This document shows positions 7,766 through 51,242 of a stretch of 51,242 nucleotides of DNA, one piece after another (position 1 is the first letter of the stretch; every line of letters begins with the position of its first letter). This DNA is from Reclinomonas americana ATCC 50394. Taxonomy: Eukaryota. A model generated the notes under the pieces. The model was not told the origin of the DNA. It did not search any database and worked only from the letters and a program-made list of their open reading frames with translations. Location: assembly GCA_048213135.1 (NCBI GenBank), contig PS015208.1:67291-118532 (forward strand), read 5' to 3'. Made by a program: the position numbers and the translations under genes.

Positions 7766-8957
7766 ATGGAGCTGCTCGTCGCCCTTGGCACACTCGTGTT
7801 CCCCGGTGACATTGTCGGTCGACTCAGCGACGCGCAAGGCACAGAAGAGGATGGCGAGTATGAAGAGGAAGAAGACGAGGAAGACGAGGGTGCGTCTGCA
7901 TCGACAAAGACCACACTGGCCATGTTGAGACTGGGTGCTGGCCTCATTCAGGATCGTGAGGTGGTCGTGGCCACGCGTGCAGGCGTGTTGAGGCGACTGG
8001 CAGCTGCAGCTGCGCACTTGTATACAGTGGATACTCCGGGATTGCGTTGTGTTGCGTCTCTCTCACTCGCACACACACACGCACACACACACATGCACAC
8101 ACACACACACACACACACTTGCACACACACACACACACACACGCACACACGCACACACATGCACAAGACAATGCATTGAGTGCATTCATTCTCTCCACTC
8201 GCTCTCCCTCTCACCATCTCCGTGCACACTGGTGGCCACATGCACTCCCTTGCACACACGTTCACTCACTCAAATGCACGCGCATGGAGCGCGCGCACGT
8301 TGAGGTGCGGCATGTCTCTCTCTCTTACACACTCACGCGCATTCACAGTACGTTCCCTCGCTGGAGGACCCTGTGATTGGAGTGGTGACGGATGCAGGTG
8401 GCGAGAACTACAAGGTCGATTTGGGGTGTCATCGGCAGGGAACGCTGTCGGTGTTGGCCTTTGATGGAGCAAGCAAGCGCAATCGACCGCGATTGGAGGT
8501 CGGTGCACTCGTGTACTGCCGTGTGGTGCTGGCCAGTCGTGATGTGGAGCCGGAGCTGTCGTGTGTGAGTCCGACGAGTCGCAAGGAGTGGATGACGGGC
8601 GAGAGTGTGTTTAATGAGCTCAAGAGCGGCACGCTGTTTGAGTGCTCGTCGACGCTGTGTCGCCAGTTGCGTTTTTTTTTTGTTGGGGTGGCAAGGCGGC
8701 TGCTGCTGCGTTCGTGCTCTGAACACTGTGTGCGGGGCTGCAGGTTGCTGGATCCCGAATGCACGGTGTTGAAGCAGGTGGGAGCGCGCATTCCGTTTGA
8801 GATCGCCGTCGGTGTCAATGGTCGTGTGTGGGTCAATGCTGCCTCGTATCGGCATCTGGCGCTCGTCTGCAACGCCATTCAGAATTCGGAGTTCCTCACG
8901 GCGGCGCAGATCAAGCTGATGGTGCGGAAGTTGGTGGAGGGCGCCGGTGGCAAGTGA
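7766..8957 (+). CDS. RRP40: Exosome complex subunit RRP40 (EXOSC3)
   Basis: YVPSLEDPVIGVV, YKVDLG, LAFDGASKRNRPRLEVGALVYCRV, EPELSC and FEIAVGVNGRVWV. Introns at 8051-8348 and 8666-8743. Confidence 0.93.
8068..8165 (+). repeat. Imperfect (CA)n microsatellite inside RRP40 intron 1
   Basis: Directly visible CA dinucleotide run. Confidence 0.9.
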
Positions 8958-24338: not shown

Positions 24339-26049
24339 TCACACAACAGCATCCTTCGCGAGCTCGGGGAACACTCTCATCACCTTGCCAAGAATGTAGC
24401 GGCCGTACACAATGCCCTCCTTGCCTGCATCCGAGTCCTTGGCTTGCTCGCGCAACAGCTCGGCTGCCTCGGCCAGTTCCTCGGCCGTCAGCGTCACGTT
24501 GCGCGACGCAGCTGCAGTGGCCAGATCCAGAAGTTGCTGCGGCAGCGGGCGCACGACACAGCTGTGTGAAGGCGTCGGTGGTGAGTGTGATAGCCACCAG
24601 AGTGGATGCGGGGCAAACCGGCTCGCAACTCAAATGGCGGATCAAAGAAGAGTGGCATGCTCACTCGGTGGCGGTCCGACCGGTTCCGCACACGGTGCGG
24701 AGTGGCCTTGTAGAGGCCACGAGTCCACGTCTCCAGCATGTCACCTGTCACGAAAAAATGAGACGACTCGTTCCACAGCTGACGTACTACGATTGCAGTG
24801 GCGCACCAATGTTGATGACAAAAGTGCCGTCGATCGGCGGTGCGGCAATCCATTCACCAGTGGAACGGTGCTGCACCTCCAATCCACCAACCTCGTCCTG
24901 TGCACATACGCAGCGAGTCAGACGTGTGAGCAGCACAGGAGGCGTCGATTAAATTTCGACACAGCGCAACTTGCGCGAGAATGGTCAGCTGCAAGAAAGA
25001 CACACACATGCACACGCGCGTGTCAGCAACAGGAGAAGCAAGTTACACTTCCTTCTTCAATAGAGTCGCCACGCACCACTCCATAGTCAGTGTGCACTCC
25101 GCACGACAGTCGCTCGCCGTCCTCCTTGGCGCCGGGCTCGTACTTGCCCTCTGGATCACCCGGGTAGCCAAAGATACGGAACGGAGTGAAAGGCTCTGTG
25201 CGTGTTTGCACCCATGAGCTTGCATGCCACTACCGCCTCGCACTGCCAGAGACAGAACAGCCAGACCAGCTGTGAACGCATCGCGGAAGAATGTTGCCGG
25301 CAGTCCGAGTGACTCGCCAATGTGTTGCATGATCACGTGGCCGAGTCTGCAGCACTCGTGAATCGCCGCGACGGTGGGGGCGAAGGGGGAGCGACAGTCG
25401 ATAGCGCAACTCTGTCATGTCGTGCATGTAGCCCAAAACATCTTGCTTCATCGTCGGGAATTCGTCATCCTTGTCACGCTATGAGGGAAAGAGCACACGA
25501 CAAGGGAGGAGAACAAAGGTCCACTCAACTGGCCACTGATTCGGTCCGTGCATGGGTGTACCGGCAAGCACCAGTGGATGATCCTCCGGCAACTCCGCAC
25601 CATAGTACAGACCTCTGTGCGCCCGCAGTCAACAACAACAACAACCAATCCGAAGATCAGTGTGAAAGACGGAACTGTTTCCAGTCGCGTCGCCCCGATG
25701 TCAGCTCCCCACCAACTTGAAAGTACCCCTGAGAGACAGACAATGAGAGAGAGAGAGAGAGAGCAGCGATCACTGGCGAGTCTCTCTNNNNNNNNNNNNN
25801 NNNNNNNNNNNNNNNNNNNNNNNNNNNNNNNNNNNNNNNNNNNNNNNNNNNNNNNNNNNNNNNNNNNNNNNNNNNNNNNNNNNNNNNNNNNNNNNNNNNN
25901 NNNNNNNNNNNNNNNNNNNNNNNGTGTGTGTGTGTGGTGGGGGGGGGGGGGGGGTTGAGGACACACAGTGAGACATGCAGTGGACGCACTTGTGCGTGCT
26001 CTTCAGCAGTGCACTGGCGATCATGCAGGTCGATCACGGGAAGACTCAT
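24339..26049 (-). CDS. 2-oxoglutarate/Fe(II)-dependent dioxygenase (IPNS/DIOX_N-like)
   Basis: [34 protein letters not shown] (HxD), [23 protein letters not shown] and TPHRV...[10 protein letters not shown]. Confidence 0.92.
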
Positions 26050-26122: not shown

Positions 26123-27754
26123 ATGTCTCTTCGGAGCAGTGCGATTGTGCCGCTCTGCGCACTGCTGCTGGTCATTGTCTGCTGCAGCAGGTGAGCACAA
26201 CTTTGCCCGCGTGTGTGTGTGAATGCGCGCGTGTGCTCACAATGTCGCGCGCGCGTGTGTGTGCACACACAGCGGAGCCCTTGCACAACAGTCGGCCACT
26301 TGTTACAACGAGCTCGATGACTCCTTCCTCAACAAGTGCCGCTACCAGGACCCCGGCTTCTTCACGATTATGGCCTCATACATCATGCAGGTGTGTGCAT
26401 GTGCATTGACAGACAGACATCACAAGCCATGGTGCTCACACTGTGCGTGCATTAGTTCATCAACCCACGAACTGTGGTGATCATCGTAATGGCTCTGATT
26501 ATGGTGCTTCCGGTGCTCATGTTGGTTCCGGCGCACGCGGGAACGGGACCGAGTGGAGCGCCACTGAATACGTTTGGGCGGCTGGAGGCCACGCTGGAGC
26601 AGTATCGCGTCACGCGCTGGAAGCTGTTGCATTTCTTGCACCGTTTGTGCTTCCCGCTGGTGCTCGCGGTGGCGCTGTATGGTGCGTTCCGTCAGTCGCG
26701 CCCGTGCCGGTGTATCATTGGGGGACAGTTGCAGCATGTTGCGTCTGTTTGCACGAAATGCAGGTGTGTTGTGTTGCTGACTGTGTGCTGTGTGTAGATT
26801 GGCAGCATCTACGGCATGCCGTCGGGTGATGCCATGAGTGCAGCGGTGTTTGCGGCCTATTTGTTTGAGGCGGCGCCGTACAGCAAGTGGGGGTGTGTGT
26901 ACTTTGTTGTTTTTCGATTTCATCGCCGCTGACGACAACACCACGCAGATCACGCATCACCGCGGTTCTGGCTCTTGCACTCGTGTGCATGGAGCGCGCT
27001 GTGCTCGGCTACCACTCCATTGCGCAGGTACTGCTTCCCCGTGTGCTTGCTTGTTGTGCCGGCTGTCCAACTCATGTCCACGCACACACAGGTCACGGTT
27101 GGCTCGTGCGTCGGAATTTTGTTGCACATTTACTCGACCCGAGCGCCGCAGTGGATGGTGTTTGTCGACGGCGTGGTTTCTGTTGCGTCTCACGACTCTG
27201 CTCTGTGCGCATGTGTCACGTTGGTGTCCACTCACGTGGCTGGCAGCTCATTCTCGGCTGCGTGCTGCTGCAAGTCGATCCCGCCATGGTGTACACGCAG
27301 GGCTCCTCGAGTTGCGCTCCCCCCGCTCTCTTTCTCTCTCTCGCTACCGTCTCACCTCACAACCAGACAACCTGTTTGCGTGGCTGTGGTGGGGCATCTC
27401 GGTCGAGGCGTTCGCCTGCATCCTGCTAGCACGGCACTACTGGACAAGTGGAGCCCGCTCGCTCAGTCGCAACATGCTGGACGTGTACAAGCCCGACGCC
27501 GAGTATGGCGTGCTTCTCAACCCGCTGGATACCCAGGCCACAACCACGGTAGGTGTCGCGTTTCTCCTCACACTTCACGTACCACGCTGCTGCTAACCAT
27601 GCCCCGTACGTAGTCCGACCCGACGGACAAGCAGACATTCCGACGCATCTCCGACGCCTGGTGGACATTGTTGGCGTTCGGCGTCTTCTCCGCCATCAAC
27701 ATCTTCTCGTGGTGCATCGGCCAGTGGAACATTCTCACCAAGTCCGCCAACTAG
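26123..27754 (+). CDS. PAP2 (phosphatidic acid phosphatase type 2) superfamily membrane protein
   Basis: FRQSRPC, YGMPSGDAMSA and ERAVLGYHSIAQV correspond to PAP2 motifs C1-C3. Multiple transmembrane helices; eight introns. Confidence 0.8.
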
Positions 27755-29378: not shown

Positions 29379-31798
29379 CTACTCCAAGCTGCCATCCGAC
29401 ACCCCAATCTCAAACGCGGGTGACGCAAACAGCACGCGTTGCGTGTGGCCGGGCAGCGCAAAGCTGCACATCAGCTCGGCGCGCGGACACGCCCACTTGC
29501 CCACCAGCGAAAAATCAACCGTGACAATCACGAATCTGTGGGGTGGGAGAAGACGAAGTCAGCGCCACGCGATTGCGTACAGCGCGGTGGGCACGAGTGT
29601 GTGTTTTACGCAACGCTTCGCTGCCGCGGACGAGTCGTGACGCAGAGAATTCGGCATCGACAATGCGCACTCGGCTGGAACCCACAGGACCAGCGAGGCG
29701 AAGCAGACCCTGCATTTCCGCATCCCGCACGCGTCCCTGGCATGGCGGTCCGTACGGCAGTGACGACTCGCGGTACACAATTCTGCGAGTGGATGGCGAT
29801 GATAAGCATGCAAGCACTCGGGTGAACAAACAAACCATGGCAGAACGAAACTTGAGACCCACACGCTGGGAGCGCACGGCGGCGCTGGTCATGGCAGCAG
29901 AGGCGCCAACCATACGCATCATTCCATTGGTGTAGTCTACGGCGCGGCTGTTGCCCGCCTTAATGCGGCTCCACAGCACCGCCACTTCCGACTGCATGGC
30001 GCCCGCCTCAAATCGCATAGCCTGCTCCTCGTCCGCATAGCGCAACACATCCGGAGCCGAGGACGCAGGGCGCTTCAACCCGCGCTTTCCACTCCTCGCT
30101 GCTGCTGCCACACCGTTCATGCCACTGTAGCCACTCATCGGCGACACACTCTCCAACGGAGACGCGCTCGACATTGGTGAAGCGGTTCCCATTGGCGACG
30201 CAGTTCCCATGGGCGACAGCGACGGCGTCAGCGATGAAGGTGGTTGCGAAAGACCGCCAAACGGAGACGCCGACGACGCTGACGCTGCATGCACCGCCGT
30301 GTACGGCGACGTCTCGACTTGCAAGCCGGCCGTCGCTGGTGACGATGAAAGCATGGAAGCGGTGGTGGTCGTCATGGTCGTCGTCGTCATTGCGGGCGAC
30401 GGCGCCGGTGACACTGCAGCACTCGGGAGCACGCCATTGGCGGCAAGTGCGGCGGCCAGGGCCAGCTGCTGCTCGCGGCTCATGGAGCGCACCAGGCTCA
30501 ACGGGTCTGCCATCATCGATGCTGACGACATACTCGGTGCAGCTGGCACAACTGGCGCGGATGGCACAATCGGCATCAGAAGCTGCTGTTGCGGCTGCGG
30601 AGCGTGGTAGAGTGGCTGCTGCTGCTGCTGCTGCGGCTTGGGCTGAAGAGGCGCAAACTGCAGGGCGGTTGATCACAAATGAGCATTTCATCAGCACCTC
30701 AGCGGAACAACAACAGCACAGCACTCACCGCAGACGACAGCGCAGGGACCACGGGGAAAGCAGAGGATGGCGGCGGTGTCGGCGGGGGCGGCATGGCGTG
30801 GTGCACCGGCTGCTGCTGCTGCAATGCCCGAGCCTGAGAGCACACACACATTTTACACAACACAATGAGAATCTCATATTGAACTCCCCTCGTTGATGAA
30901 CCGTCACCACCCCCCACAGCGGCTACAGATGCACACACATACGGGCAGACAGACAGAGAGAGAGAGCACGTGCCAACGACATGGCCAGTAACTGACGCTT
31001 GCACACACACACATGAGAAACCAAACAGTGCGCAGCGACATGACACAAGCCGGAGACACGCGCACGCGCAAGTGAGCAGTCACAGAAGAAAGCAAGCAAG
31101 CAAGAGAAGGGCGAGGAAAGTGAGCAAAAGTGCATATGCAACATGCCTCAGCAACTGACGCGACGAGACACACAAACAGCCTCACAAAGAGAGCACACAC
31201 ATTCAACACAAGAGCGTGCACGTGCGTGTGTGTGTGTGCTGCTGCTGCGGTGGCCANNNNNNNNNNNNNNNNNNNNTGTCCCGATCAAACTCACCAACAA
31301 ACTCGCCGTGCTGAACTGCTGCTGCTGCGGAGGTGGCGGCGGCGACATCATCAAGTGCGCTGGCGGTGGTGGCGGAGGTGGTGGCGGAGGCGGTGGTGGT
31401 GGTGGCGCCATCATCTCCAGCGACACAAACGACGAGGGCGGAAGCTCAAGATTTTGTGGTGGGTGCGGAAATGGCTGCTGCTGCGGAGGTTGAGGAGATG
31501 GCGCCCACGCGCTCGACGCCCACGCTGACGACGATGATGAATAGGAGGATGCAGGCTGCGGGGAGTAGCATGGCGAGCATGATGGCTGGAGGAACAGAGC
31601 GTGGCTNNNNNNNNNNNNNNNNNNNNNNNNNNNNNNNNNNNNNNNNNNNNNGCTGCTGCTGCTGTGGTGCTGGTGGTGGTGGTGGTGGTGGTGCGATGGT
31701 GGAGTCATGAGCGACTCGCGAGGCGAGCTGGGCTCAAACCATTCCGGGGGCACATGCAGCTCCTCGTGGGTGGCGGAGGAGCCGGTGCTCTCGGTCAT
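29379..31798 (-). CDS. Low-complexity (His/Pro/Gln/Ser-rich) protein with a basic NLS-like patch and a beta-rich C-terminal domain; putative regulator
   Basis: Spliced frames through MTESTGSS..., KRGLKRP, VGLK|IVYRESSLPYG...GSEA|FVIVTVDFSLVGKW...LFASPAFEIGVSDGSLE-stop. The 5' end is uncertain. Confidence 0.55.
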
Positions 31799-34670: not shown

Positions 34671-37600
34671 ATGCTGAGCAGCGTTCTGCGATGGAGCGCA
34701 CAACAGCTCTCCACGCCATCCTCGACGTCGAAAGCATCGTCAGCGATGATGACGACACTGATGACGCAACCACTTCGATGGCATCTCTCTCGGCGAGGAT
34801 TCATCGAAATGAGAACCACACTGCCCGACAACCCCGGTAGGAGCAGCAGGCACCTTACTCACACACAGACACATTCTCTTCTCTCACACACGCACACACA
34901 TGCACGCAGGCGATGCACTGAAAAAATACGGCAAGGATCTGACCGAAGTTGCATACTTCTCTCTCTCTCTTCCCCCACCTTCTCTCTCCCGCCACTCACA
35001 CCTCCACTCACTCAGTTGGCGGAGAACGGCAAACTCGATCCGGTGGTTGGTCGCGACGAAGAGATTCGCCGCACTCTGCAGGTGCTCGCCCGTCGCACCA
35101 AGAACAACCCGGTTCTCATCGGGGAGCCGGGCGTGGGCAAGACGGCGATCATCGAGGGCCTCGCGCAGCGCATTGTCAAGGGCGAGGTACCGGACAGCAT
35201 TAAGAACCGGCGAGTGATTGCGCTGGATTTGGGCTCGTTGGTCGCCGGCGCCAGCTACCGCGGAGAGTTTGAGCAGCGACTCAAGTCGGTGCTGCGCGAT
35301 GTGCAGCAGGCCGAGGGCAAGATGCTGCTGTTCATCGACGAGTTGCACACGCTTGTGGGCGCTGGAGTGCGTTGCTGCCGAGTTGTCGCGATTGGTTCCG
35401 GTGAGGGAAACTGACTGTGCATGCAGGCTGCTGAAGGATCAATGGATGCGTCAAACATGCTAAAGCCGGCACTGGCACGTGGCGACTTGCACTGCATCGG
35501 TGCGACGACGCTCAACGAGTATCGCAAGGTTCGACCGTTCGCGGTGTGTCAAGGGTGGAACCTGTCTCCTAACGACCACCACGCACACAGTACATTGAGA
35601 AAGATGCCGCGCTGGCGCGGCGATTCCAGACCGTGTTCGTGCCAGAGCCGTCGGTGGAGGCCACTATTAGCATCTTGCGTGGATGTTGCGCCTCTTTCCT
35701 CTGCGCCTTCGTCACAACTTCTGCCATCCCGAAGTGACGATGCTCGTGTGCAGTGAAGGAGCGCTACGAAGTGCACCATGGCGTGCGAATCGCCGATGGA
35801 GCACTGGTGGCCGCCGCTGTGCATTCGCACAAGTACCTGTCGGAGCGCAAGTTGCCTGACAAGGCCATTGACTTGGTGGACGAGGCAGCCAGTCGCCTGC
35901 GTCTGCAGTTACGTGGATCTTTATCATCGATCATGCTCGCTCTCCCTCACTCCACACACACACACCCCAGGCAAGAGAGCAAGCCAGAGGACATTGATCA
36001 GCTGGATCAGGCCATCATCACGCTGAAGATTGAGCGCGAGGCGCTGAAGAAGGAGAGTGATCGAGCGTCGCTGGAGCGTCGCGAGCGTGTCAATTCCGAA
36101 CTGCGCCAGAAGCAAAACGAAATGGACCGCCTCATGAAAGTGTGGCAGGAGGAGAAGTTGCGTGGAGAGATCCTCGTCGCTTCTTGTTGTTCTATCCCTG
36201 TTCTCACGCATATGCACAGGAAGCGCATCAACGAACTGAAGGAGTCCAAGGCGGCACTGGAACGCGCCAAGGCCGAACTGGAACGAGTGCAACGCACCGG
36301 CAACTGGCAGCGAGCCGGCGAGCTCAAGTACTCCGAGATTCCCAAGCTGGAGCAGGCGCTGAAGCATGAGTTGCGTGCGAATCAACTACACGAGGAGCAT
36401 GTTTCTCTGTGGTCTCACAGGATTCGCAGAGAATCGGATGAGCTCCGCATGCTGAGCGACGTGGTGACGGAAAAGGACGTGCTGCGCGTGATTGGCAAGG
36501 CCACGGGCATTCCAGTCGAGGTGTGTGCGAGAGAGACGGCCGGCCATGTCAACCGTTTCCTTTCTCGTCGCTTATCAAAATGCACGGTGACGCACAGAAT
36601 TTGATGATGGGCGAGAAGGAGCGCTTGTTGCAAATGGAAAGCATGCTCAGCAAGCGCGTCGTGGGGCAAGACGAGGCCATCAAGGCGATCAGGTGAGGCT
36701 CACTACCGAATTGTTATTTATTGCGTCTCCAGTTTTTTTCTGTGGTCTCATCGCCGTCGTCCCAGCAATGCAATTCGCGTTTCGCGTGCCGGTTTGCATG
36801 CGCACAATCGCCCGCTGGGCTCCTTCTTGTTCCTCGGCCCAACGGGTGTCGGCAAGACCGAATTGTGCAAGGCGCTGGCGCAGTTCCTCTTCAACGACGA
36901 CAACGCCATGGTCCGCATCGACATGAGCGAGTACATGGAGCGCTTCTCCGTGTCGCGCCTTGTCGGTGCACCACCGGTGCGCAATGTGTTTGCGCAGTGC
37001 GTCAGCAGTGGATTGTCGTCACTCACACGCCAACAAAACTTGCAGGGCTACGTCGGCTACGAGGAGGGTGGCACACTGACCGAGGCAGTGCGTCGCCGAC
37101 CGTACCAACTGGTGCTGTTTGACGAGTTCGAAAAGGCGCACCGCGAGGTCTCCAACATTCTGCTGCAAGTCATGGACGAAGGCCACTTGACCGACAGTCA
37201 GGGCCGGCGAGTCGACTTCAAGAACACCCTCATCATTCTCACCAGCAACATTGGCGCACAGTCGCTAACTCCCGACTTGTCGGTACGCATTCTTCTTCTT
37301 CTTTCGCTAAGTTCACTGGCACTGACTGAACGGTGTTGTGGCGATCGATGACAGGATGCGGAAGTAAAGTCGACGCTGATGGATGCCGCGCGCAACTTCA
37401 TGGCCCCCGAATTCTTCAACCGTCTCGACGAAGTGGTCGTCTTCAATCGCCTAAAGTTCGAGCACATGGATCGCATCATCGACGTTCAAATGCGCAGTTG
37501 CGATACTCACTGTGGCCGATGCTGGGCATGTTTACTGATGGAGACCGTGCGTGAACAGATATTCGCGGAATGCTGGCTGATCGACACATTGACGTGGAGC

Positions 37601-37976
37601 TGGACAAGCCCGCTCGCGAATTCCTGGCTCGCGTTGGCTTTGAGCCAGCATATGGCGCCCGGCCACTGAAGCGCGCCATTCAGGTACACACTGCTGCTGT
37701 GGAAGTTGACCTTGGTCGGTCTTGTCTCTCGCTCACACGCCGCCGTCGCTGTGACACCAGGAACACCTGCTGAATCCGCTCGCGGCTCGCCTGCTGCAAG
37801 GCGATGTGCTGGAGAACGATCTGGTGCGCGTCCTGGTGGACCCTGTTGACCGCAAGCAGCTGACGTTTGAGATTGAGCACCGCGGTGAGCCTGCCGGCAA
37901 GGCCGACGGCAAGTCCGCGTCGAGCTCGTCCACCAAATCGAATGGCTCCGTCCAGGAGGCCGAGATCGTGTCTTGA
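34671..37976 (+). CDS. clpB: ClpB/Hsp100 disaggregase, mitochondrial Hsp78-like
   Basis: Walker A motifs GEPGVGKT and [15 protein letters not shown], middle coiled coil, [30 protein letters not shown] and YGARPLKR. It lacks the N-domain and begins with an Arg/Ser/Thr-rich presequence. Fourteen introns. Confidence 0.96.
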
Positions 37977-38038
37977 TCGGCATCGACACCCGCAACACGC
38001 ATAGAATGAGAAAACCATCGTCGTGAATGACAATGCAC

Positions 38039-40389
38039 TCATGACGGATTTGTGGAGGTGGCTGGCGTGGGTGCGGGTGCGGGACGACGGCTGAGATACT
38101 TGGCGTGTTGTGGCGCCATGACCGCACAGTCAATGTTGAGCAGGGCACAGGCGCACGAGGTGGCGCGCTCCAGTACACCACGCTTCAGTGCACATGTCTC
38201 CCACACGCCTGCTGGTTTCTCGACAGCGATCAGTTCGCACATGCAAGGAGGCGAGGTGAGGTCACTCGTTCAAACGAACCAGACTCGCGCATGTCGCCAA
38301 CGGTGCCTGCCACCACATCAATGCCAGTCCACCACTCCCCGCGCCGGTGCGCGACTCGGAGGCCTTGCAGGGTGCTGCATGAAGAGTGCAGCGTCAGTGG
38401 TCGGCGAAGAGAAAGGAATTGTAGTTGTTAGGTTGCTCACCTCGGCCAATCCATGCCGGCCGATTCGGCAAGCAGACGCACGTGGTCTTCAAGAGCCGCA
38501 ACAAACACATCCACCGCCCCGTCAACGACTTCGGAACGCTGCAGGAGTGGCGAGTGAGAACCTGGAGAACAGACATGGACTGACTGTCACTTTGTCAACG
38601 CGAACCAGTGCATCCTCGCGACCCAATCGCGTCACCAGTGCCATTTCTGCACTGCCACCACCAGTGATGCACTGCAGACGCGGAGCATGTCAACATTGAA
38701 AGGGACCACAGTTCGTGCGATGGCAGGTGCAAGTGTACCTGAAAACCACCGGTGCGGCGCTCAAACATGACCAGCGACAGCGCATCATGCATGGCACGAC
38801 GGACCTCGGCGGTCGCGCTGTCGGTGGGGGCGCAGAGCACCAGTGTCGAAAACACTGGTGCGCGGCCGTCGCTGACTTGCTCCACCTCCACGCGCCACTG
38901 CGACTCCTCAACACGCATCACTCGGATACACACCGGCGTCAGCTTGGACTCGAGACGATCGCCGGCGTCGGTGAGTGCACTCTGTGTTTTGAAAATGAGA
39001 AGACAGTTGCCATCCGCGACAAGTGCCGTGAGCGCCAGACCTCGGTGAGTATCACACCCGCGGTGCACAGGAGTGCCAGCCGATCCAGCTCGGCATGGGA
39101 CACACCGCCAAACACGTGAATGCCGTGCGCCTCGAACACTGCATGCGTCTCGGCGGTGATCACCTGCGCCACACATGACCACCTATCAGCAACTCCTCCT
39201 CGCACCCACAGGCTGAGCAAGCGCCGCAACAGAGCCCACAAAAGCCGCAGCGACACCGAGTTCCGCCAGCCGTGCACACACGCTACGCAGTGCTTCTGTT
39301 CTCACACCACTGCCGAGGATAGAATTAAGGTGGGCATCAGCATCTTGTGGTCATGCATGCATGGGGATCCCCAACCTGTCAGGCGCACTGGCACTCTCCC
39401 ATATGCGCCGCTCCGATCGCGCCGACGGCGCCGCGATGGAGGCACTCAGGCTTCGAATGACAACAGCGTGACTCGGTTCGGTGGCCAGGCTGCTGGCACG
39501 TGTCAGCGCGATGATCGTGGTATCTTAAACGAGATAAACGCAACGCCACCACGGCTGCGCCTGCCTTCACGCGGTCGATGCAAACGCCGTGAAACACACG
39601 CGACTCGTCCACCTGCCCGCCCACACGCTGCGCAAGAAACACACAATCACTGTCGTCCACATCGTCCAGCTCGAGAAGCGGGCACACCGCCTCGCACAGC
39701 AATGCCGCCAGATGCACACGCCACGGCGCAGCGACCTTGGTGGCCAGACACGACATGGCCAGTCGCTCGACCGCCGATCGTGCACCAGCCTTTGAGGAAG
39801 ATGAGGAAGCAGTGGCTGGAGTCAGTGTCTCGCAGGCACACAGTCGACGACACAGTTCCCACAGCGAAGCAATCACTCGTGCCGGGCGCCACGAGTCGCG
39901 GCGGATGAGCTCCTTCCCGCCCATGCACAGTGCAATGGCCAACAACGCCACCGAGGTTGTTCCGTCACCCACTGCATGCATGCATCGTCAGCCAGATTGC
40001 AATGAGTGTGCCTCCCCCAGCGATCGATGCACACCTTCGCGTTCCTGTGCGAGCGCTGCCTCGCGTACGAGTTGCGATGCCGGGTGACGCAGATCGATTG
40101 AACGCAACACCGTCGCACCGTCGCTGGTGAACACCACCGAGCCAAGTGGATCTGAGAGTGACAAAACGAGGATTAGCTGCAGTCTCCTTCTGTGTGTGTT
40201 ACATGCAAGAGACAACGTGCCGGTAAGTGCTTTGAGCATGGCGTGCGGGCCGAGGAGCGTCCACAGCACTTGTCGCACGCGTCGCAACTCTCGCTCCATC
40301 CACTCATCGAGATCGGCCACTGCAGCGCCCTCACTGGTGGTGCCGACCGCGGGGAGGAGTAGGCGCGCGTCGGGATGCACGAGCTCCAT
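38039..40389 (-). CDS. Divergent group II (CCT/TCP-1-like) chaperonin; candidate BBS6/BBS10/BBS12-type
   Basis: TLLGPHAMLKAL, FTSDGATVLRSIDLRHP, EVGDGTTSVALLA and C-terminal GVWETCALKRGVLERATSCACALLNID. The apical region is very divergent. Confidence 0.75.
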
Positions 40390-40464
40390 TTTCGACGCAG
40401 CGCGGATTCACTTTGTTACTTTTGTTTTTCGTTGATTCATTGACTGTCTGACGGTTCGTTTTCT

Positions 40465-42419
40465 TCACGACGATGGTTGGGCGGCGGTGCTGCGCGGGAG
40501 ACGAATGTCGGTGGGTGAGCGGACAGCAACACCTCGCTGCTGGCAGGCGGCAGTCAGGCGGCGTTTGATTACGGTTAGATCACGCTCGCCGACCGCCGCT
40601 GCGTCTTCGACATCGCTGCCACTCACGGCCACCACCAGCAGAGGACCGCTCGAGCGCGTGAGAGAGACCTGCAGGTCGGCAGCCGAGGGCGGCTCGTCCT
40701 CCACTCCTCCTATCGATCGCACACACACACACGCGCAGCGTCAGCGCCATCAGCAAGGGGGAGTGGTTGCGGCCAAGCAAGACAACGCAACCCTCGGACA
40801 AGATGACCACGGCGGCGCCACAGTCGCGCTCGTGCAAATGGTGAGGCGGAACAATGTCGACGTCGGTGGGCACATTCGGAGAGGTGACGAGCTCTTGCGC
40901 CACGCAGTCCTCGTGTACCATCACCGCCACCTCCGTGGCCGCATGCACCTCGAGCAGACGCTCAATGCACTGTTCCACCGTCACGACGACTGCCACACGG
41001 ATTGTCAGCAAATCGACGCACATCTCCAGCCAAGGACGTACACAAAGCACTCAACGATCAGAGCGATTCGTGTCAATCAGCCACACACTGCTGGTGCCCT
41101 CTGGCCGGTCGGCATCGTCCTCGGCATCAGCAGCGGGCGGCGGTGCGGGAATCTCCTCAAACACCTCGTGAAGCACGTGAGCTGTGCTCGTCGTCAGCAT
41201 CGATGAAGAAGAAGTCAGCTAGGGGGGACGCAGACAACCGCACCGACTGTAGGATCCAGCCGATACTGCTGCTGCAGGTGACATTGCGAGGCGACACCAG
41301 ACAAGCACCAGTCCAGCACACTCTCCGACAGAGCCGACACCAGATCGATCTGCGACTGCGGTATGCCACTCGACGGTACCAGTCGCGGTCGGGGACCTTG
41401 CACAGAACCCGCGCACACAAATTGCACCACTGTTTGTTTGCAGAGGAAGGAGATTAGTGAGGTCGTCGAGGATGATTCGAAAAAACACCACACCGAGCGC
41501 ACCATCGTGTCCGGCAGAAAGCTGCCAGCAATTATTGCGCAAGTTGAGCATGGTGTGCGAGAATGACTACATCGACATAGAGAGTTCTACGCACCGGTAC
41601 CATGCCCAGCGGCACGCTGCATTGCGAGGCGCCGTCGAGAATCACACGGTACACGGTGCCGGACTGAGGCAGCTGACGCGCCATGTGTCCGAGGTCGGCC
41701 AGAGTGACAAAGAAGATGCGAGCGGTGGCCAGCGCACGGTCCAGCTGATCGTCATGACGACGCTGCGCGACGATAGCAGATAATGTCAGCTACTCCTATC
41801 AACAGGAAGACCACCGATCTCGCGTCACACCTGTCGCAGCGCTCCGGTCGACAACACACGACCTCCGCGGTAAAGAGACTCTGCACCAATCAATAAAAAA
41901 AGTAACACTGAGTTAGCGTGCGACTGCGAGTGCTCTACGAATGGGACTGGTCACGCACCAAAGTACGACATGTGGGCGTCGGAGAGTGTGTCGTGCACGA
42001 GGCGCACCACATGCAGCTTGGAGGCAGCATCGGGAGCCTCTTTGAAGAACATGCTCGCCAAGTTGTCCACAGTGGCATTGGTCGGGCCAGTGACAATGAC
42101 GCGGTCGTGATGGAACGCCCAGGTGAACAGCGACAGGATCGCCGTCAGGACCGACGACTTGCCTGGCGATACACACGCACACGCCTGTGAGTGAGCAACA
42201 CATTGCACTTGCACCACATCTCTGGCACACGCACCTGTGCCTGGCGGTCCAGTGATGGCGACCAGGTTGTGCATGAGGGCCGCCTCCAACGCACCCAGCT
42301 GCGACTCATCAAACACGGCTTGATCGATCGAACTCGCAGACGCCGGCTCCACCACGGCCGCCGACTCGCCAAGTGCTACAGCGTCCAGAGAACCAGTGAG
42401 TGCGGGGTCACCAGCAGCA

Positions 42420-42456
<37 letters not shown>

Positions 42457-45404
42457 GACGCAACGAGTAGTTCGGAAGCGCGTTAACAGGCGCCACGGAA
42501 CATCGGCCGAGTCAATGGCGAGCGACAGCAGCTCGCGCAACGGCGTATCAGCTGCCAGTCCACTGGATCCGCTGACGTGGAGTCGGAGGCGCCTTTCGGC
42601 AGCCTCACGCGCCAACGTGCTCAATGATTTGGTCTTTGTTGGAGAAGCACGGGGCATATTAACACAAGGCAATGAACACCCCCGGAGGGGGATAGAAGCT
42701 GACACTAGCTCACCTGGCCGCTGATAATGTTGCGAGTGTTGGTCGGCAGGTCGAGGTGCAGAATGTTGCGAATGGCGAACAGCATGGCCACCGTCTCGTG
42801 ACGGTCCGTGTTGATCAAGCGACGCTCGTGAACCGGGTAGCGGCCACAGCGAGCGGCCACATTTGCCGCCTGCGTGTTTCCACACAGACAGTCAGCAACA
42901 ATGACATCAACGCGGTGGAATAGACTCGACGCACCTCTGGGGGCATTCCGTTTCCAATGTCAATGTGCAACTCGAGTGTGCGCAGACTGGCCACGTATCG
43001 ACACAAATGCTGTGCAGTGGCGGGTGAGCGACATGGGATGAGAAACAAGGGTGATTGTTGGCGCTGCTGCCTGTCACCTTGAAGCACACGTTGCGCGCCA
43101 CGGTGGTCAGTCGCGCCTCACTGTCGCGGAACACAACATCACGCGGCAGTCCACGGCGAACAAACTCCTCGTGCACCCACGTGAGCGGCTGCACGTCCTC
43201 CGAGGCGTACACAATGAGATCGCGCGACAGTGGTCGGTGTTGCCAGAGATTGCTGCGGCGCACAAGATGGGTAAGGGGCTGCGAGAGAGACCGACGACTG
43301 CGCTGCACACACCGGTCCTGATTCATCATGCTGCGCACTTGGCTTTTGAGGTCGGTCGCCGACTTGAACCCGAGCTGAATCAACAGACTCGTGAAGCCAA
43401 TCTCCCGCGAGGGCTTGTGCTGCGAGTCGCCACATCTCTCAGCACTTCAAGCAACATCGCACTGTGCGTCTGAATGGATGGTCACGACGTACCTGTCGCT
43501 GCATCAAGTGCTGCCACGCCACCTGCGTGTCGAACACGGATCGCAGAACAATTCTGTACTGCTCCAGCAGTGCACCTGCGTCAGCACGGCAGTCGTGAAT
43601 GACCTGTGGGGGGTCACATGTGCGCGCGGTCAGCTTGTATGCACTCACAACACGAGCTCATGAGCACTGACCTTGGTGTACGCCGGACTCTCCAACAGCC
43701 ACCGCAGAGTGCTGGTGGGCTCGGACAGCATGCGCGGCTCAGTGGAAATGTCAAACAGGTACACGTTGCCACGCGGATCCGACAGTTGCAGCAGACAGAG
43801 TGCGCCGCTGGTCGTGGAAATAGTACACCAGCAAGAAATCAACACCGATGCATGATTGTGCACACCAGATGCATGTGACGACTCACGTGTACGACAGATT
43901 GACTCCCTCGCAGTCCCACCCGAGCACGTCGTACTGCTGCAGATGTGAAGCCACAATCTCACATCGCGCGTATGAGTCCACCAGGAACAGCTTCCCGTAG
44001 ATCCCTGACATTGGTTGCGACAGGTTGTCCACCAGCATCTTCTCCCACTCCTGTCGATCGTCCTCCGGCTGTACACAAACAAAATGAGTGTCGATAGCAC
44101 TGCCACCAACACAAAGCACAACGCACTCTCGGTGGCGACGACAGAGACGATACGACTGAAGCGGCTGTCATCATGCCGGAATTCAACGGCGCCGGCACAC
44201 TGTGAGGTCGCGACTGTGCCGACACGCCACCACCACCACCACCGCTGCCGCCATTGACGCCGCGCGGCGAGTGCGAGAGTGGAGAGGGACCGCCGCCAGA
44301 GCCACCACCAGCACCAGCACCACCGCTGCCCGGCGGCGAGCCCATGGGATTGAACGAGTACATGGGTGGCGACGGTTGCGGCGGCGGCCTGCCCATCATC
44401 ATGCCCGGCGGTCCAGCTCCTGCGGGATAGTACGGCGCTGGCAGATGCATTGGCTGGCGCGAGGGCGACGGCATACCACCGGGCATGCCGTACGGCATGT
44501 GACCGAAGGAGCCGGGGGGCGAGAACGCCATGGGCACGTACAGCGGCTGCCCCGGATTGTAGCCGGGAAACCAGAGTGGCGAGCCGACCGACGGTCGCAT
44601 GGAGGAGGCCCCCGGCGACGACGGCATGTGCATCGGCATGGATGGCGAATACACAAAGTCAGTCGGCGTACGCGCGGCCGGTGAACCCACAGCCGGACCC
44701 CGCGGTGACGGCGACTGCTGCTGAGTCGGCATCGGAAGCTGCGACGGTGCACGCGAATACACTTGTCGCGGCTGCTGCTGCTGCTGCTGCTGCTGTGGCT
44801 GCGACGGAGGCGCACGCTGCTCCTGTGGCTGCTTCACCACCTGCAGCGACACAGCAGCTGGTGGAGGCGACGCTGGCGGCAGCGGCGACGGAGAAGCCGC
44901 AGGAGGAGGAGGAGACGCCGGCGGTCCGGGCGACGTTGGCGGCCGCGGACTCACCGACACCATCCACGCCGGCGTCCGTCCCTGCGACCACACCGACTGC
45001 ACCTTACTGCACCCACACACATCATAAGCCATCACCGCCACACACACATAGCTCATCGTGTATACACAGAGTGAGTCGCACGCACCCACGCGCTGGCACC
45101 GGCTGCACCGGCTCATCCTCTCCATTCTCACCATCCTCATCAGCATCATCGTCCCCGCCACTGCCCGCGGTTGCAGCAGCAGCAGCTGCAGCAGTTGCTG
45201 CTACGCTCGCCGCATGTGCACTGGCATGCGCAGCAGCACGCAGGTTGCGGCGACGCGATCGTCGGCGACCTGCGCAAAAAGAGGGAAGCCATCGTCAGTC
45301 ACATTCTCGCATCTCTCTCTCTATCTCTGTCTCACTTGCTGTTGTCTGTGACACTACGTGTGTGCTTGTGGGTGAGAGAGAGAGAGAGCCCTGACGCAAC
45401 CCAT
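40465..45404 (-). CDS. Fusion of an EXD1/Egalitarian-like DEDDy 3'-5' exonuclease and a degenerate UPF1-like SF1 helicase, with a Pro-rich N-terminus
   Basis: Exonuclease motifs VLGWDCEG, LCLLQLS, KVIHDCRAD, VFDTQVA and WQHRPLS...YASEDV. Helicase motifs DESQLGAL, ITGPPGTGKS, GPTNATVDNL, VILDGASQ, QQYRL and VSLTRS. GT-AG splicing links the two domains in frame. Confidence 0.8.
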
Positions 45405-45636
45405 ATGTGCTGTCTGCGAGTGTGCAGGTGCGCGCGCGCGTCAGCAAAACGCACACGCACACACAGACACAGACAGGCTTTCTCCTCTCGTCACGCTCTG
45501 CTCACGCGCACTGTGCACACACACAGAGAGAGACAGAGACAGACAGACGGAGAGAGAGACAGGCGCACACACGCAGGTGAAAGTCGATGAGAGAATTTCA
45601 CATCCTGTCGGATTGATTGGTGTGGTGTGTGTTAAG

Positions 45637-46555
45637 ATGGCGGGTGCGAGCGGAAATCGCACTCTGGTGCCCTCCTTTGACTTGCACCTCAATCATAACA
45701 TTCTTGAGGGACTCGCCGTCGTTGGCAAATGTTACGCACACAAGCAAAACACTAAACAAACTGACTGATTGACACGACAAAACGCACACACACTCTGTCT
45801 CTCTGTCTTGCACTGTCACTCGCAGCGTGCGTGTGTGTTGTGTGCTCTCTCTCTCGCGCACCTCTTTTCTCTGTGTGTTGTGTTGGATCTCTCTCTGATC
45901 ACTCACATGTCAAGTTTGTTTTTTTCGCGCGCAGATGATGGAACTCACCCGATCCTCACTTGCGCCACCTCCGGCTGCAAGGTGTTCATGCACAACCCGC
46001 ATGCGCAACCCGACAAGACCACTTTCCTCACCAATGCCAGTTGAGTCCGTGCGAGAGAGACAACTTGAAAGACACACTTCTCTCAATCACTCTTCCTCCT
46101 TCTCCTTATCCTCCTCCTCCTCCATCTTCTTGTCTTGCTCTTCTTGTTCTTGTTCTTCTTCTTCTTCTTCTTCTTCTTCGTCTTCTCCTTGTTGTTGTAG
46201 TTGTTGTTGTTGTTGTTCTTCTTCCTACACCTCCTTCTCCTCCACCTCCTCCTCCATCTTGTTGTCTTGTTCTTCTTCTTCTCCTTCTTNNNNNNNNNNN
46301 NNNNNNNNNNNNNNNNNNNNNNNNNNNNNNNNNNNNNNNNNNNNNNNNNNNNNNNNNNNNNNNNNNNNNNNNNNNNNNNNNNNNNNNNNNNNNNNNNNNN
46401 NNNNNNNNNNNNNNNNNNNNNNNNNNNNNNNNNNNNNNNNNNNNNNNNNNNNNNNNNNNNNNNNNNNNNNNNNNNNNNNNNNNNNNNNNNNNNNNNNNNN
46501 NNNNNNNNNNNNNNNNNNNNNNNNNNNNNNNNNNNNNNNNNNNNNNNNNNNNNNN

Positions 46556-46644
<89 letters not shown>

Positions 46645-49380
46645 TCTCTCTTCTTCTTCTTCTTTTCCTCCTCCTTCTCCTCCTTCTCCTCCCTTCTCCC
46701 TTGCCCTCGTCTCACTCTTGCGCCACAGTTCAATACCTCAACATCAACAGACCTGTGACGGCGATGGCTGTCGGCGCACCCAACGTGAACTCGTCACACG
46801 ATGCACTCTTTGTGGGCATGGGCACCAACTTAATGGCGTTGCGTGGTCTTTCCCCACACATACTCTCCATTGCTGTCGCCAAGTGGTGCTCAAACGTCTT
46901 GCTCGCAGGTACGACGTGGAGCGCAATCAGGATTTGTTCTATCGCGATGTGCAGGATGGCGTCGGCGGCCTGGTGTTTGGGCGCATTGGCAATCGGCCGA
47001 TTCCGCTCATCATTGCCGGCGGCAACTGCTCGGTGCAGGGGTTCGACTACTCCGGCAACGAGTCGTACTGGACGGTGACGGGCGACAATGCCTCGGCGCT
47101 GACGCTTATTGACGTGAATCGCGATGGCGAGAACGAGCTGGTCGTCGGCACCGACGACTTTGTCATTCGTATCTTCCAGAACGACGATGTGGTGGCGGAG
47201 ACGGTGCGCGAATGACCCCCGACATTAGCGTTGTGCACACGCGTCGTCGCCTGAAGAAAAGAATGCTGTACAGGTGGAAACCGATCGCGTGGTGGATCTG
47301 TGCTCCATCCAGGGACCACGATACGGCTACGCGCTGGCCAACGGCACCGTGGGTATCTACGAGGCCGATCACCGCGTGTGGCGTGTGAAATCCAAGAGCA
47401 GTGTGCTGTCGGTGGTCGGCTTTGACCTCGACGGCGATGGCGTGCCGGAGATCATCTCCGGCTGGAAGAGCGGCAAGTTCGAAGTGCGCAACCAGGGCAC
47501 TGGCGAAGTGGTCTACAAGGATCACTTTTCACGAGCCGTCGTCAAGGTGCTCACTGCCGACTACCGAATGGACGGCAACTTTGCCGTCATTTGCTGCACC
47601 TCCGAGGGAGAGAGTTGCGTGGCGAAAGTTGCCGCAGTGATATCGAGGTGCGGCAGCTCAACTCTGTTGCGTTGCAGTCAAGGGCTTCCTGCCGGCCACC
47701 GAGGAGCAGGCTGCCGAGCTCATGGACAATGCACAAGAAGAGGAGCAGCTCAAGGCTCTCAACCAGCACAAGCAGGTGCGCTTATTATGCAGAGGGACTG
47801 GAGACGACTCACCTGCTCACCTTCCTCTCTCTCTCTCTCTCTCTCTCTGTGTGCGTGTGCAGGAACTCATGTACGAGCTGCGTTCGTACGAGGAGAATCT
47901 GCGGAAACTCAAGGCCGGCGAGAGGAGTGCTGGCCTGGTCCCGCACGACACTCACGTTGGCTGTGCTCTCGTCGTTGCGTGCATCAGCGGCTCGTGTTTT
48001 CTTTCTATTCCCTATCTCACCATCCGTGTGCACACAGGGCGATCCATCGAGACGCATTGTCGAGGCGGTGATTGAGAGCACACCGGGCACGGTGATCAAG
48101 GCAGCCGTGTTGTTTGCGGAGGGATTGTTTACGGGCGAGAGCTTCTTCTCTTGTCCGCGGGAGCCGACGAACCAGCTGCGCATTCCCATCAAGCCGGAGC
48201 GTGATGTGGGATGCACCATGTTTATTCAGGCCATGGTCGGCACGCGCATGGGAACGCAGTTCCACGTGTTTGAGTTGGCCTTGCTGGTTCCCAAATTCTG
48301 TGTGTACGTGTTGGAGCCGCGCGAGGCCGTCAAGAGGCCACGCTCGTCGGTTGCATTCAGGCTCACGCAGCGGAATCAACGAGTTTCGTGTGTTGTCGCC
48401 CGCCGTCTACTCCCTTTGAACGAGTGACACGCTCAACCAATTGTTGCAGATTGGCTTGTGGTTGGAGCGCAGCTTTGGTGTGCCTGCTGCTTCACTCCCG
48501 GACTCAGACGCAATCGACATTTCGCTGCGATCGATGCGAGACGGCACCGTCGTCGTCATGCAGTTCACCACCGACCGCCTGACCATCTATGTGGATCGCA
48601 TGGATGTGGCCGCCGATATTGTGCAAGACATGTGTGAGGCGTTTGAGATTGATGAGCTGGAGAGCGAAGTCGATTTCCCCGAGGAAATGGAGCGCTTCCG
48701 CACTCTGCTGCAGGAGGTCTGTATATTTGTGCCAGGTACGGCATTCTTTCTACTTGCTGACTCGTGTTCGATGGCAGGTGGACGAGTTCAACGCGGCGCG
48801 CCTGAAGATGAATGCCGAAATGGCCGACAGCTCACAACTCATCAAGACGCTCGTCATCAAGGCCGAAGACGCACGCATTCTCGGCGACATGAAGCTGATG
48901 AAGCAGATGTACGGCGACTTGCACGACCTCAACCGCGAACTCATGGGCGAGTACCAGAAGCGAGCCAACAACCATGCCGAGCTGCTGCGTCAGNNNNNNN
49001 NNNNNNNNNNNNNNNNNNNNNNNNNNNNNNNNNNNNNNNNNNNNNNNNNNNNNNNNNNNNNNNNNNNNNNNNNNNNNNNNNNNNNNNNNNNNNNNNNNNN
49101 NNNNNNNNNNNNNNNNNNNNNNNNNNNNNNNNNNNNNNNNNNNNNNNNNNNNNNNNNNNNNNNNNNNNNNNNCTCAAGGAGGTCAACAATGTCATTCAGC
49201 GAGCGAGCAAGCTGCGAGGTGAGTGGTGGAAGACGGCAGGGGTTGATGGTGCTTGCCACTCAGATGATGGTTGCAGTCGGCGAAAGCAAGGCTCGTGTGG
49301 TCAGCGAGTGCCGCAAGGCCATCAAGAGCAACAATATCGCCGCCCTCTTCAGCATCATCCGCTACGGTCGAAGCAACTGA
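45637..49380 (+). CDS. BBS2: Bardet-Biedl syndrome 2 protein (BBSome subunit)
   Basis: [51 protein letters not shown]...WTVTGDN, YALANGTVGIY, WRVKSK, QFHVFEL, AEMADSS...KAEDARILGD and IQRASKLRVG. Confidence 0.96.
46090..46700 (+). repeat. Pyrimidine-rich simple repeats ((TTC)n, (TTG)n, (CT)n) filling BBS2 intron 2
   Basis: Directly visible; pure (CT)n at about 46556-46640 next to a gap. Confidence 0.9.
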
Positions 49381-49986: not shown

Positions 49987-51242
49987 TTAGAGGAAGTAGA
50001 TGGGACGTGACGGCGCGTACTGCGTGTGTGCCTCCTCGTCCCACTTGAAGATCTTGAAGTCGCGCTCCAACGTCTCGTTGAAGGCCAGAATCGAAGCGAG
50101 GTTACCGCAGCGCTGCAATGACGATACTCGTGAGAAATGCGAGGGAGACGAGGGTGAGACGATGCAAGACAGTACTCACCGACTGCACCAAAGGAAGAAG
50201 GCAAGTCGAAGAGGCACAGAGCGAGTGAGTCACCGAAGTGCGATGAAGGTAAGGGAGCAGCGACGAAAGCAGATGATGGGGTACGCAACGCACTAGAATC
50301 CGGAAAGAGGGTGCGTACGGAAGCAGTCAGAAGCACACACAAACAGTTAGTTGTCACGCATATACAGACGCCACAAGCGACAGGACTCACGTACTGCGCA
50401 AACAAAGCAACAACTGTTGTGAGCAAACAACAGAGACAGATGTCGCAACAACAAAGAAAGAGACGCAACGTTGGGGGCACTCCACACAGTGACCAGGTTC
50501 TGCACACAAAAAAGAAGCACGTCTCTCACTCAGCCACAAAACAACACTCAGACAAACCGAGGGCAGCAAGCACGCACCCTCTCCTTGAACATGTACTTGT
50601 ACCCCTCTTGCACGAGCTGGTGAGCGCGGCAAATCAACTCGAGATTGTTGATGTGTGCAAACTGCACAGTCACCACCACGTCAGTCACCGTTTGTCATCG
50701 CAGGGAGGACTGGATNNNNNNNNNNNNNNNNNNNNNNNNNNNNNNNNNNNNNNNNNNNNNNNNNNNNNNNNNNNNNNNNNNNNNNNNNNNNNNNNNNNNN
50801 NNNNNAGACAGACATACGCGCCTCGGTGGTCACACGGTTGCCAAAGATCCAGCCGGCACCGCGCGGGCTCAACGCCCACGTCTCAATGTCCTCCGGATCG
50901 CTCCACATCATGTCGCAGAAGGAGCCCTCGTGTGGGATCTCCTGCTTGCGGTCAATGAGACGAATCTGATCCAGGGTCTTGACCTCGGGTGACAGGCCAC
51001 CGTGCACACACAGAATGCGTCCGTCAATGACCTGCACGCAAACGACATGAGAGTGTTGGAAGGCGGCAGAAAGAGAGAGAGCAAGCGAGCGACAGCAGCA
51101 CGCAACAGCCGCAATGTTAAAGTAGTCGCACACTTCCATGCAGTACTTCCACGCGTTGCCGGAGCCGTACTTGGACTCGCACTCGTCGTAGAAACCATAG
51201 ACCTTGGTGATCTGGCGCGACTCGTGGTTGCCGCGCAACAGC
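49987..51242 (-). CDS. PPP6C: Ser/Thr protein phosphatase 6 catalytic subunit (PPP6C/SIT4-like); 5' part lies outside the window
   Basis: [89 protein letters not shown] and C-terminal YFL-stop. Confidence 0.93.

Follow-up and report, generated by a model that had tools for sequence, protein, structure and literature searches.

In the current study, we analyzed the 5' splice sites (donors) of a 51,242-base window of eukaryotic DNA from Reclinomonas americana (contig PS015208.1), in which a second class of donor, shifted by one base, is in routine use beside the canonical one. The window, by which we mean this whole stretch, has a G+C content of ~55-60%, carries 3,747 N across 16 masked runs and is gene-dense, with ~21 predicted gene models. 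Three genes could be named through Pfam or homologues as ClpB, BBS2 and RRP40, and Pfam further named a carboxylesterase, a 2OG-Fe(II) oxygenase, a Metallophos phosphatase, a thioredoxin/PDI-like gene, an LRR protein gene and a Cpn60_TCP1-like gene. In protein searches, the top matches share ~60-66% identity and are spread over scattered protist lineages (Euglena, Rhodelphis, Cryptomonas, Pharyngomonas, Cyanophora, and Pavlovales). One metagenome scan using a BBS2 exon returned no relative. An Rfam scan at the gathering threshold returned nothing in the window, and hence no snRNA gene; at E<=1 the sole match was SCARNA2, at chance level (E 0.91). Introns are short, with a median of 70 nucleotides (nt) and a 5th-95th percentile range of 49-214 nt in the ab initio models.

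Few features of 5' splice sites are as conserved as the G at intron position +5 and the constant distance that separates it from the cut. The canonical donors of the window read (A)G/GTGCGY, GTACGY or GTGAGW (the slash marks the cut), with G at the last exon base (-1) and at +5. Donors of the second form read N/GTTGCGY, GTTACGY, GTTGAGT or GTTTCGY, lack the G at -1 and carry their downstream G at +6; in other words, the second class is the first class plus one T after GT. Both forms are ordinary GT-AG (U2-type) introns, and their removal restores continuous homology in spliced alignments of ClpB, BBS2, and RRP40. Median intron length is 68 nt for donors with T at +3 and 71 nt for the remainder. 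In strict word sets of the two forms, the acceptor is CAG in 24/30 shift-class and 31/36 canonical introns, and a branch-site-like CTNAY word occurs within the last 50 nt of 24/30 and 26/36, respectively, at a median distance of 18 and 19.5 nt from the intron end. GC-AG and U12-type introns are likewise minority donor classes beside GT-AG, but here the dinucleotide is GT and the U12-type word RTATCCTY stands at no donor. U12-type introns were rejected on this ground; the only RTATCCTY in the window, where ~1 is expected by chance, lies at 9445-9452 (-) inside an intron of the PDI-like gene, away from its 5' end.

Junctions were placed in two ways. A protein-to-genome spliced aligner (dynamic programming, BLOSUM62) admitted introns that start with GT or GC and end with AG, at one equal penalty and with no donor matrix; the references comprised six proteins for ClpB (mostly bacterial, and so intron-free), sets of eight and 12 for BBS2, and ten for RRP40. 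Introns were also predicted ab initio by a gene finder that combines a 3-periodic Markov coding model, intron composition, an acceptor matrix and an intron length distribution, and that was trained on the window itself with any GT allowed as a donor. As a guard against circularity, a control run left the first 12 intron bases out of both scoring and training; "both ab initio runs" below means the main run and this control. In genes modelled on the right strand, the finder placed 14 of 17 homology-fixed donors exactly. RRP40 and the 5' portion of BBS2 are wholly absent from its models, so the shift class is undercounted, if anything.

The main ab initio run predicted 153 introns, in which the +3 base was G in 75, T in 48 (31%), C in 17 and A in 13. 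When the donor profiles of the window are split at this position, the G peak moves. Among the 48 donors with T at +3, G stands at +6 in 38 and at +5 in five, preceded by G at +4 (34) and C at +5 (35) and followed at +7 by T (31) or C (10), with A 24, C 12, T 8 and G 4 at -1. Among the 105 donors without T at +3, G stands at +5 in 63 and at +6 in 16, with G at +3 in 75, C (44) or A (28) at +4, T (53) or C (27) at +6, and G at -1 in 60. The shifted pattern GTT-N-[CA]-G accounts for 36/153 predicted donors (23.5%) as against 141/6284 of the other GT sites of the window (odds ratio 13.4, p 1.7e-24). The control run gave the same picture, with 156 introns, 49 of them with T at +3 (G at +6 in 35, at +5 in eight), and the shifted pattern at 34/156 donors. 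An earlier note on this DNA, which had claimed a routine second donor register, is thereby supported both by donor-agnostic statistics and by the homology described below: the conserved G is at +6, not +5. Its statement that such donors occur in all phases and on both strands also stands (T-at-+3 class 15/12/21 by phase, 21 on + and 27 on -). Its estimate of about 50 donors, or a third of the introns, matches the donors with T at +3, while the truly shifted subset is nearer a quarter; we place the shift class at ~22-25% of introns.

The inserted base is specific. GTTGCGY is a predicted donor in 25/65 of its occurrences and GTGCGY in 23/192, making the longer word the better donor predictor here, whereas GTCGCGY is a donor in 1/32, GTAGCGY in 0/8 and GTGGCGY in 0/46. 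A plain k-mer count is mildly informative (GTTGCG, 90 copies vs. 49.8 expected). A possible objection is that there is no second register, +3 being merely degenerate and the G at +6 a product of chance or composition. As that reading would have it, G does stay at +5 in a few GTT donors, namely 35529 (GTTCGA), 23447 (GTTCGT), and 18519 and 18779 (both GTTTGT), all on the + strand. All four have G at -1, however, and indicate that T at +3 is tolerated in the canonical register too. With +6 G in 38/48 against +5 G in 5/48 of the T class, and with the enrichment over other GT sites given above, we regard the objection as next to impossible, and within the window it is already refuted.

Homology fixes the position of many of these junctions. 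At least 70% of the references support 22 donors, ten of which, in ClpB, BBS2, and RRP40, belong to the shift class. The 14 coordinates named in the earlier note all start with the heptamers it quoted, and most of the junctions it proposed in conserved genes hold. ClpB shows 13 introns against its six references, and its GTT donors at 34948, 35685, 36157 and 37497 were recovered; the other two proposed there were not, at least by homology. That at 36370 lies in a poorly conserved coiled-coil stretch and is taken by a single reference, yet it was picked in both ab initio runs. At 35908 the aligner preferred an equal-length alternative (35913/35975) that scores the same or better, so that none of the six references chose it, yet both ab initio runs did, and it uses the first AG past the pyrimidine tract. 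In BBS2, donors 45731, 46040, 46838, 47614 and 48383 were borne out, and 47974 was not: two of eight references take it, two take the GC three bases on and four take other sites. Both RRP40 introns were recovered (8051 and 8666). For the carboxylesterase, three of the four claimed donors are clear GTT sites and one is ambiguous between 5398 and 5395; all five claimed for the oxygenase were found ab initio (24629, 24970, 25410, 25529 and 25675); and of the three claimed for the PP-type phosphatase, two were found and the third was not.

Two side observations concern the homology-fixed genes. BBS2 intron 2 (46040-46728, +) is ~690 nt long, ten times the median, and contains a masked run (46290-46555) followed by a long (CT)n tract from 46556. 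The N-terminal exon of RRP40 (7818-7930, +) carries an acidic low-complexity insertion that several references skip as spurious short "introns," which are therefore not to be counted as introns.

Every GTTGCG donor doubles as a tandem donor, with an in-frame GC 3 nt downstream, and it is conceivable that these GTTGCG/GC pairs allow one-codon alternative splicing. The same arrangement raises the possibility that the junctions are misplaced, the real introns starting at that GC (GTT/GCGY, as GC-AG introns) or at other, canonical GT sites and the GTT class being a model artefact. Some references do prefer the GC: one of six at 37497, two of eight at 47974 and two of six at 36370. At seven well-aligned GTTGCG donors (35685, 36157, 37497, 46838, 47614, 8051 and 8666), on the other hand, the GT was taken in 50 of 54 reference decisions and the GC in one, with no intron placed there in the remaining three, and GC-AG introns were rejected accordingly. 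Donors reading GTTACG, GTTTCG or GTTGAG have no such GC and enjoy equal support (10/12 at 45731, 8/8 at 48383 and 11/12 at 46040). Pfam coordinates run unbroken across the esterase junction at 4441, where the COesterase profile matches positions 27-160 up to the exon end and 162 onward from the start of the next exon, and the split codon supplies position 161, making the junction exact. Misplacement is, in our judgment, highly improbable.

The two classes also differ on the exon side of the cut. G occupies -1 in 1/36 shifted donors and in 47/63 canonical donors with G at +5, a gap present in each phase of the ab initio set. With strict word sets the figures are 1/30 and 28/36 (p 2.5e-10), and in the homology-only set 0/10 and 10/12. 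The coupling holds among all 153 donors, where those with G at -1 have G at +5 only in 44 cases and at +6 only in three, and those with another base at -1 have G at +6 only in 43 and at +5 only in 16. It even holds within the donors with T at +3, as three of the four with G at -1 have G at +5 only (GTTTGT, GTTCGT), and 37 of the 44 without it show G solely at +6. Retention of G at +5 by a GTT donor thus goes with G at -1, a further point against a degenerate +3. Among the predicted shift-class donors just one has G at -1 (gagg/GTTGCGT, 40785-40791, -). It may be a genuine exception; otherwise its junction, in a poorly conserved gene, is misplaced.

This coupling (47/63 vs. 1/36) means that both classes fit one fixed word, G-[G/T]-T-G-C-G-Y. 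In a fixed frame the word common to both is G-K-T-G-C-G-Y, often with A before it, and the difference lies at K alone. When K is G, the cut falls before K (AG/GT); when K is T, it falls one base upstream, at the only GT available (A/GTT). At -1, shift-class donors (A 13, C 10, T 6, G 1 of 30) are unlike canonical donors at -1 and look more like them at -2 (A 10, C 13, T 8, G 5 of 36). The second donor class, its frequency, its specificity for T and its coupling to -1 are direct observations in the window. The donor pattern is real, and from it we infer which RNA reads the second class, and how.

One explanation for the extra T is a bulge, in which U1, and later U6, would pair canonically at -1, +1 and +2 with one U of +2/+3 flipped out, and GCGY would take up the pairing usual for +3 to +6. 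The added base is invariably a T beside the obligatory T at +2 (25/65 vs. 1/32, 0/8 and 0/46), as expected of a degenerate bulge position; a bulge +2/+3 register is listed among those of human 5' splice sites (Tan 2016, PMC4856993); and the U6 or catalytic stage needs some bulge or extra spacer under any model. A bulge at U1 would preserve the pair between -1 and C9, however, so that G at -1 should be about as frequent as the 47/63 of canonical donors, and it was found in 1/36 shifted donors and in none of the ten fixed by homology. In humans, moreover, this register was predicted at 68 of 201,541 sites, 54 after curation (PMC4856993). The human sites (Roca 2012; Tan 2016, PMC4856993), as described there, are like the class in the window in having UU at +2/+3 and the downstream consensus one base off, and differ in keeping the -1G pairing. 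We consider a bulge unlikely: the lack of G at -1 favors a U1 register shifted by one over a simple bulge, and of the interpretation offered in the earlier note, which named a variant U1 or U6 or a relaxed ACAGA/Prp8 geometry tolerating a bulge as candidate causes, the routine use of two registers is supported and the bulge is disfavored.

We hold it somewhat more probable than not that a single U1 reads both forms at the same place and that the second form is a register shifted by one base. One U1 5' end would pair both forms over the same word. In the shifted form, the intron G at +1 would pair with the usual partner of the exon G at -1, U+2 would be the one mismatch, opposite the usual partner of G+1, and +3 to +7 would form the pairs usually made by +2 to +6. 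The tri-snRNP would then set the cut on the GU. If the tri-snRNP cuts at the GU and U6 pairs with the GY of the motif as usual, the U6/active site must take six, not five, bases between the cut and that G. As to why G at -1 is avoided, it is possible that it would nucleate the canonical register and leave the cut ambiguous.

Several points weigh against this reading. Every junction is placed from homology and reading frame, roughly a fifth of the ab initio donors are probably misplaced, and the sample is a single 51-kb window. The mirror on the exon side is imperfect, with C at -2 in 6/30 shift-class donors and at the corresponding canonical -3 in 18/36. With the textbook U1 5' end, the shifted consensus is predicted to pair very weakly in every register, at -0.3 to -2.8 kcal/mol, as against -8.6 for the canonical consensus, and a standard U1 alone therefore fails to explain efficient use of the second class. 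A hypothetical U1 matched to GUGCGU would pair equally well with the bulged, -1G form at -9.9 and with the shifted, -1A form at -9.8 kcal/mol, so that U1 duplex stability fails to explain the avoidance of G at -1. Duplex energies, with either the textbook or the hypothetical end, thus give no discrimination between registers.

The poor pairing with textbook U1 could instead be taken to favor a dedicated small nuclear RNA (snRNA), that is, a second variant of U1 (or U6 or U5) matching GUUGCGU, with one reader for each class. The shift class is indeed as sharply defined as the canonical one, its GTTGCGY word being a donor in 25/65 cases as compared with 23/192 for GTGCGY. As the two classes share one fixed-frame word, a single reader is simpler, and we rate a dedicated snRNA as quite unlikely.

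The individual donors of the shift class, with two canonical examples, are listed in Table 1; pooled evidence yields 42 candidates plus the GTTGCAT variant.

Table 1. Shift-class donors and two canonical examples, with coordinates in the window and the evidence for each.
Donor	Gene or remark	Position	Strand	Evidence
GTTGCGT	T at -1	1634..1640	-	both ab initio runs
GTTGAGT	esterase	3411..3417	-	both ab initio runs
GTTGCGC	esterase	3582..3588	-	both ab initio runs
GTTGCGT	esterase	4435..4441	-	ab initio; Pfam COesterase continuity 160, split codon, 162
GTTGCGT		7168..7174	-	both ab initio runs
GTTGCGT	RRP40 intron 1	8051..8057	+	7/10 references
GTTGCGT	RRP40 intron 2	8666..8672	+	10/10 references
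GTTACGT	thioredoxin/PDI-like	9648..9654	-	both ab initio runs
GTTGCGT	PDI-like	10517..10523	-	main ab initio run only
GTTGCGC	PDI-like	11051..11057	-	both ab initio runs
GTTGCGT		12299..12305	+	both ab initio runs
GTTGCGT		12866..12872	+	both ab initio runs
GTTGCGT		16111..16117	+	both ab initio runs
GTTGCGC		17152..17158	+	main ab initio run only
GTTTCGC		19647..19653	+	both ab initio runs
GTTGCGT		19866..19872	+	both ab initio runs
GTTGCGT	LRR protein gene	22376..22382	+	both ab initio runs
GTTGCGA	2OG-Fe(II) oxygenase	24623..24629	-	both ab initio runs
GTTGCGC	oxygenase	24964..24970	-	both ab initio runs
GTTGCGC	oxygenase	25404..25410	-	both ab initio runs
GTTGAGT	oxygenase	25523..25529	-	both ab initio runs
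GTTCCGT	oxygenase	25669..25675	-	both ab initio runs
GTTGCGC		27311..27317	+	both ab initio runs
GTTGCGT		29608..29614	-	both ab initio runs
GTTTCGT		29845..29851	-	both ab initio runs
GTTGCAT	ClpB; variant with A at +6	34948..34954	+	5/5 references reaching it; ab initio
GTTGCGC	ClpB	35685..35691	+	6/6 references; ab initio took in-frame site 6 nt upstream
GTTACGT	ClpB; candidate	35908..35914	+	both ab initio runs; 0/6 references
GTTGCGT	ClpB	36157..36163	+	6/6 references; ab initio
GTTGCGT	ClpB; candidate	36370..36376	+	1/6 references; both ab initio runs
GTTGCGA	ClpB	37497..37503	+	5/6 references, one takes GC at 37500; ab initio
GTTGCGT	Cpn60_TCP1-like	39538..39544	-	both ab initio runs
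GTTGCGT	sole shift-class donor with G at -1	40785..40791	-	both ab initio runs
GTTGAGT		41049..41055	-	both ab initio runs
GTTGCGT		42458..42464	-	both ab initio runs
GTTACGC	BBS2	45731..45737	+	7/8 and 10/12 references
GTTGAGT	BBS2; intron to 46728 spanning masked run	46040..46046	+	11/12 references
GTTGCGT	BBS2	46838..46844	+	8/8 and 12/12 references; ab initio
GTTGCGT	BBS2	47614..47620	+	8/8 references; ab initio
GTTGCGT	BBS2; candidate	47974..47980	+	2/8 references; ab initio took 47956
GTTTCGT	BBS2	48383..48389	+	8/8 references; ab initio
GTTGCGT	phosphatase gene region	50463..50469	-	both ab initio runs
GTTGCGT	Metallophos (PP2A/PP6-type) phosphatase	51100..51106	-	both ab initio runs; Pfam on next exon
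GTGCGT	ClpB; canonical example	35367..35372	+	6/6 references
G/GTGCGC	BBS2; canonical example	47204..47209	+	8/8 references

Other features of the window are of interest in their own right. A divergent Cpn60_TCP1-like gene (38437-40389, -) is flanked by ClpB and by a large helicase-like gene, with BBS2 ~5 kb away; an exon of 38 amino acids in it scores 32.3 bits against a cut-off of 34.3. This gene could be a BBS-type chaperonin (MKKS/BBS10/BBS12-like). In addition, (CT)n/(GA)n and (GT)n/(CA)n microsatellites are strongly enriched throughout the window (TCTCTCT, 130 copies vs. 12.6 expected), and many are intronic or intergenic.

A shifted U1 register has precedent in humans, where U1 can pair one nucleotide downstream of its usual position, as demonstrated genetically at a few sites (Roca and Krainer 2009, as described in Tan 2016, PMC4856993, and Kramarek 2024, PMC11162779). 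Both shifted and bulged registers are described as proven in human cells, and the validated non-canonical registers together amount to 1.5% of 201,541 human sites (Tan 2016, PMC4856993). The human shifted register resembles the class described here in that the GU is kept at +1/+2 with the rest of the consensus one base downstream, and the GU of the model oligonucleotide in Tan 2016 follows an A rather than a G. Unlike the class in the window, which comprises about a quarter of the introns, reads GCGY rather than AAGU and almost excludes G at -1, the human register is rare according to these accounts; its pairing is backed by U1 genetics, whereas pairing in the window is deduced from sequence.

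For U6, a register off by one has been proposed at a tandem donor of STAT3 (Kramarek 2024, PMC11162779). According to its authors, alternative U6 registers were undescribed before that study; the distance from the cut to the U6-paired G had always been five, STAT3 gave the first hint of four, and no distance of six is mentioned there. The STAT3 donor and the shifted donors of the window are alike in departing by one from the usual five, but the distance is one shorter there and, as we propose, one longer here, and STAT3 is a single site that needs a downstream helper region, whereas here a whole class of introns is concerned. A division of 5' splice sites into two major classes, a U5-favored AG//GU and a U6-favored //GURAG, has also been described (Open Biol 2025, PMC11732430). 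As in the window, donors in that scheme that are strong on the exon side (-1G) tend to be weak on the intron side. It involves one register, however, as far as described there, and in the window donors with a perfect canonical intron side keep G at -1 in 28/36 cases, in contrast to 1/30 of the shifted ones, so that compensation alone fails to explain the pattern.

Searches of the main text of open-access papers found no report of a lineage in which shifted or bulged donors form a large class. Likewise, GTTGCGT, GUUGCGU, GUUGCG and GTTGCGY were not found as a splice word in open-access texts, the single match being unrelated, and an open-access search for shifted or bulged registers in protists or other eukaryotes returned human, tunicate and review papers only. 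In the literature searched, the mechanism has precedent, and none was found for the scale of the class, its sharply defined consensus or the switch at -1.

A more far-reaching model compatible with these observations, which we hold tentatively at just short of an even chance, is a dual-offset spliceosome, in which a fixed, U1-bound (A)G-K-U-G-C-G-Y would be cleaved at one or the other of two neighboring phosphates according to K, with the presence or absence of G at -1 as the switch, and in which about a quarter of the introns would be spliced with a six-base instead of a five-base spacer at the U6 ACAGAGA/Prp8 site. A co-evolved U1 5' end, with GC replacing two pseudouridines, or a second snRNA variant may exist alongside it. 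For annotation, gene finders trained on a single donor matrix can be expected to lose or mislocate roughly a quarter of the introns of this genome and of its relatives. In humans, shifted and bulged U1 registers occur at the per-cent level or below, judging from the account in PMC4856993. If the model is true, the donors described here would offer a natural system for studying the choice of cleavage site once U1 leaves, the slack tolerated in the catalytic core and the co-evolution of an snRNA 5' end with its donor consensus, and a dual-offset spliceosome would represent a lineage-wide relaxation or remodelling of a geometry regarded as near-invariant.

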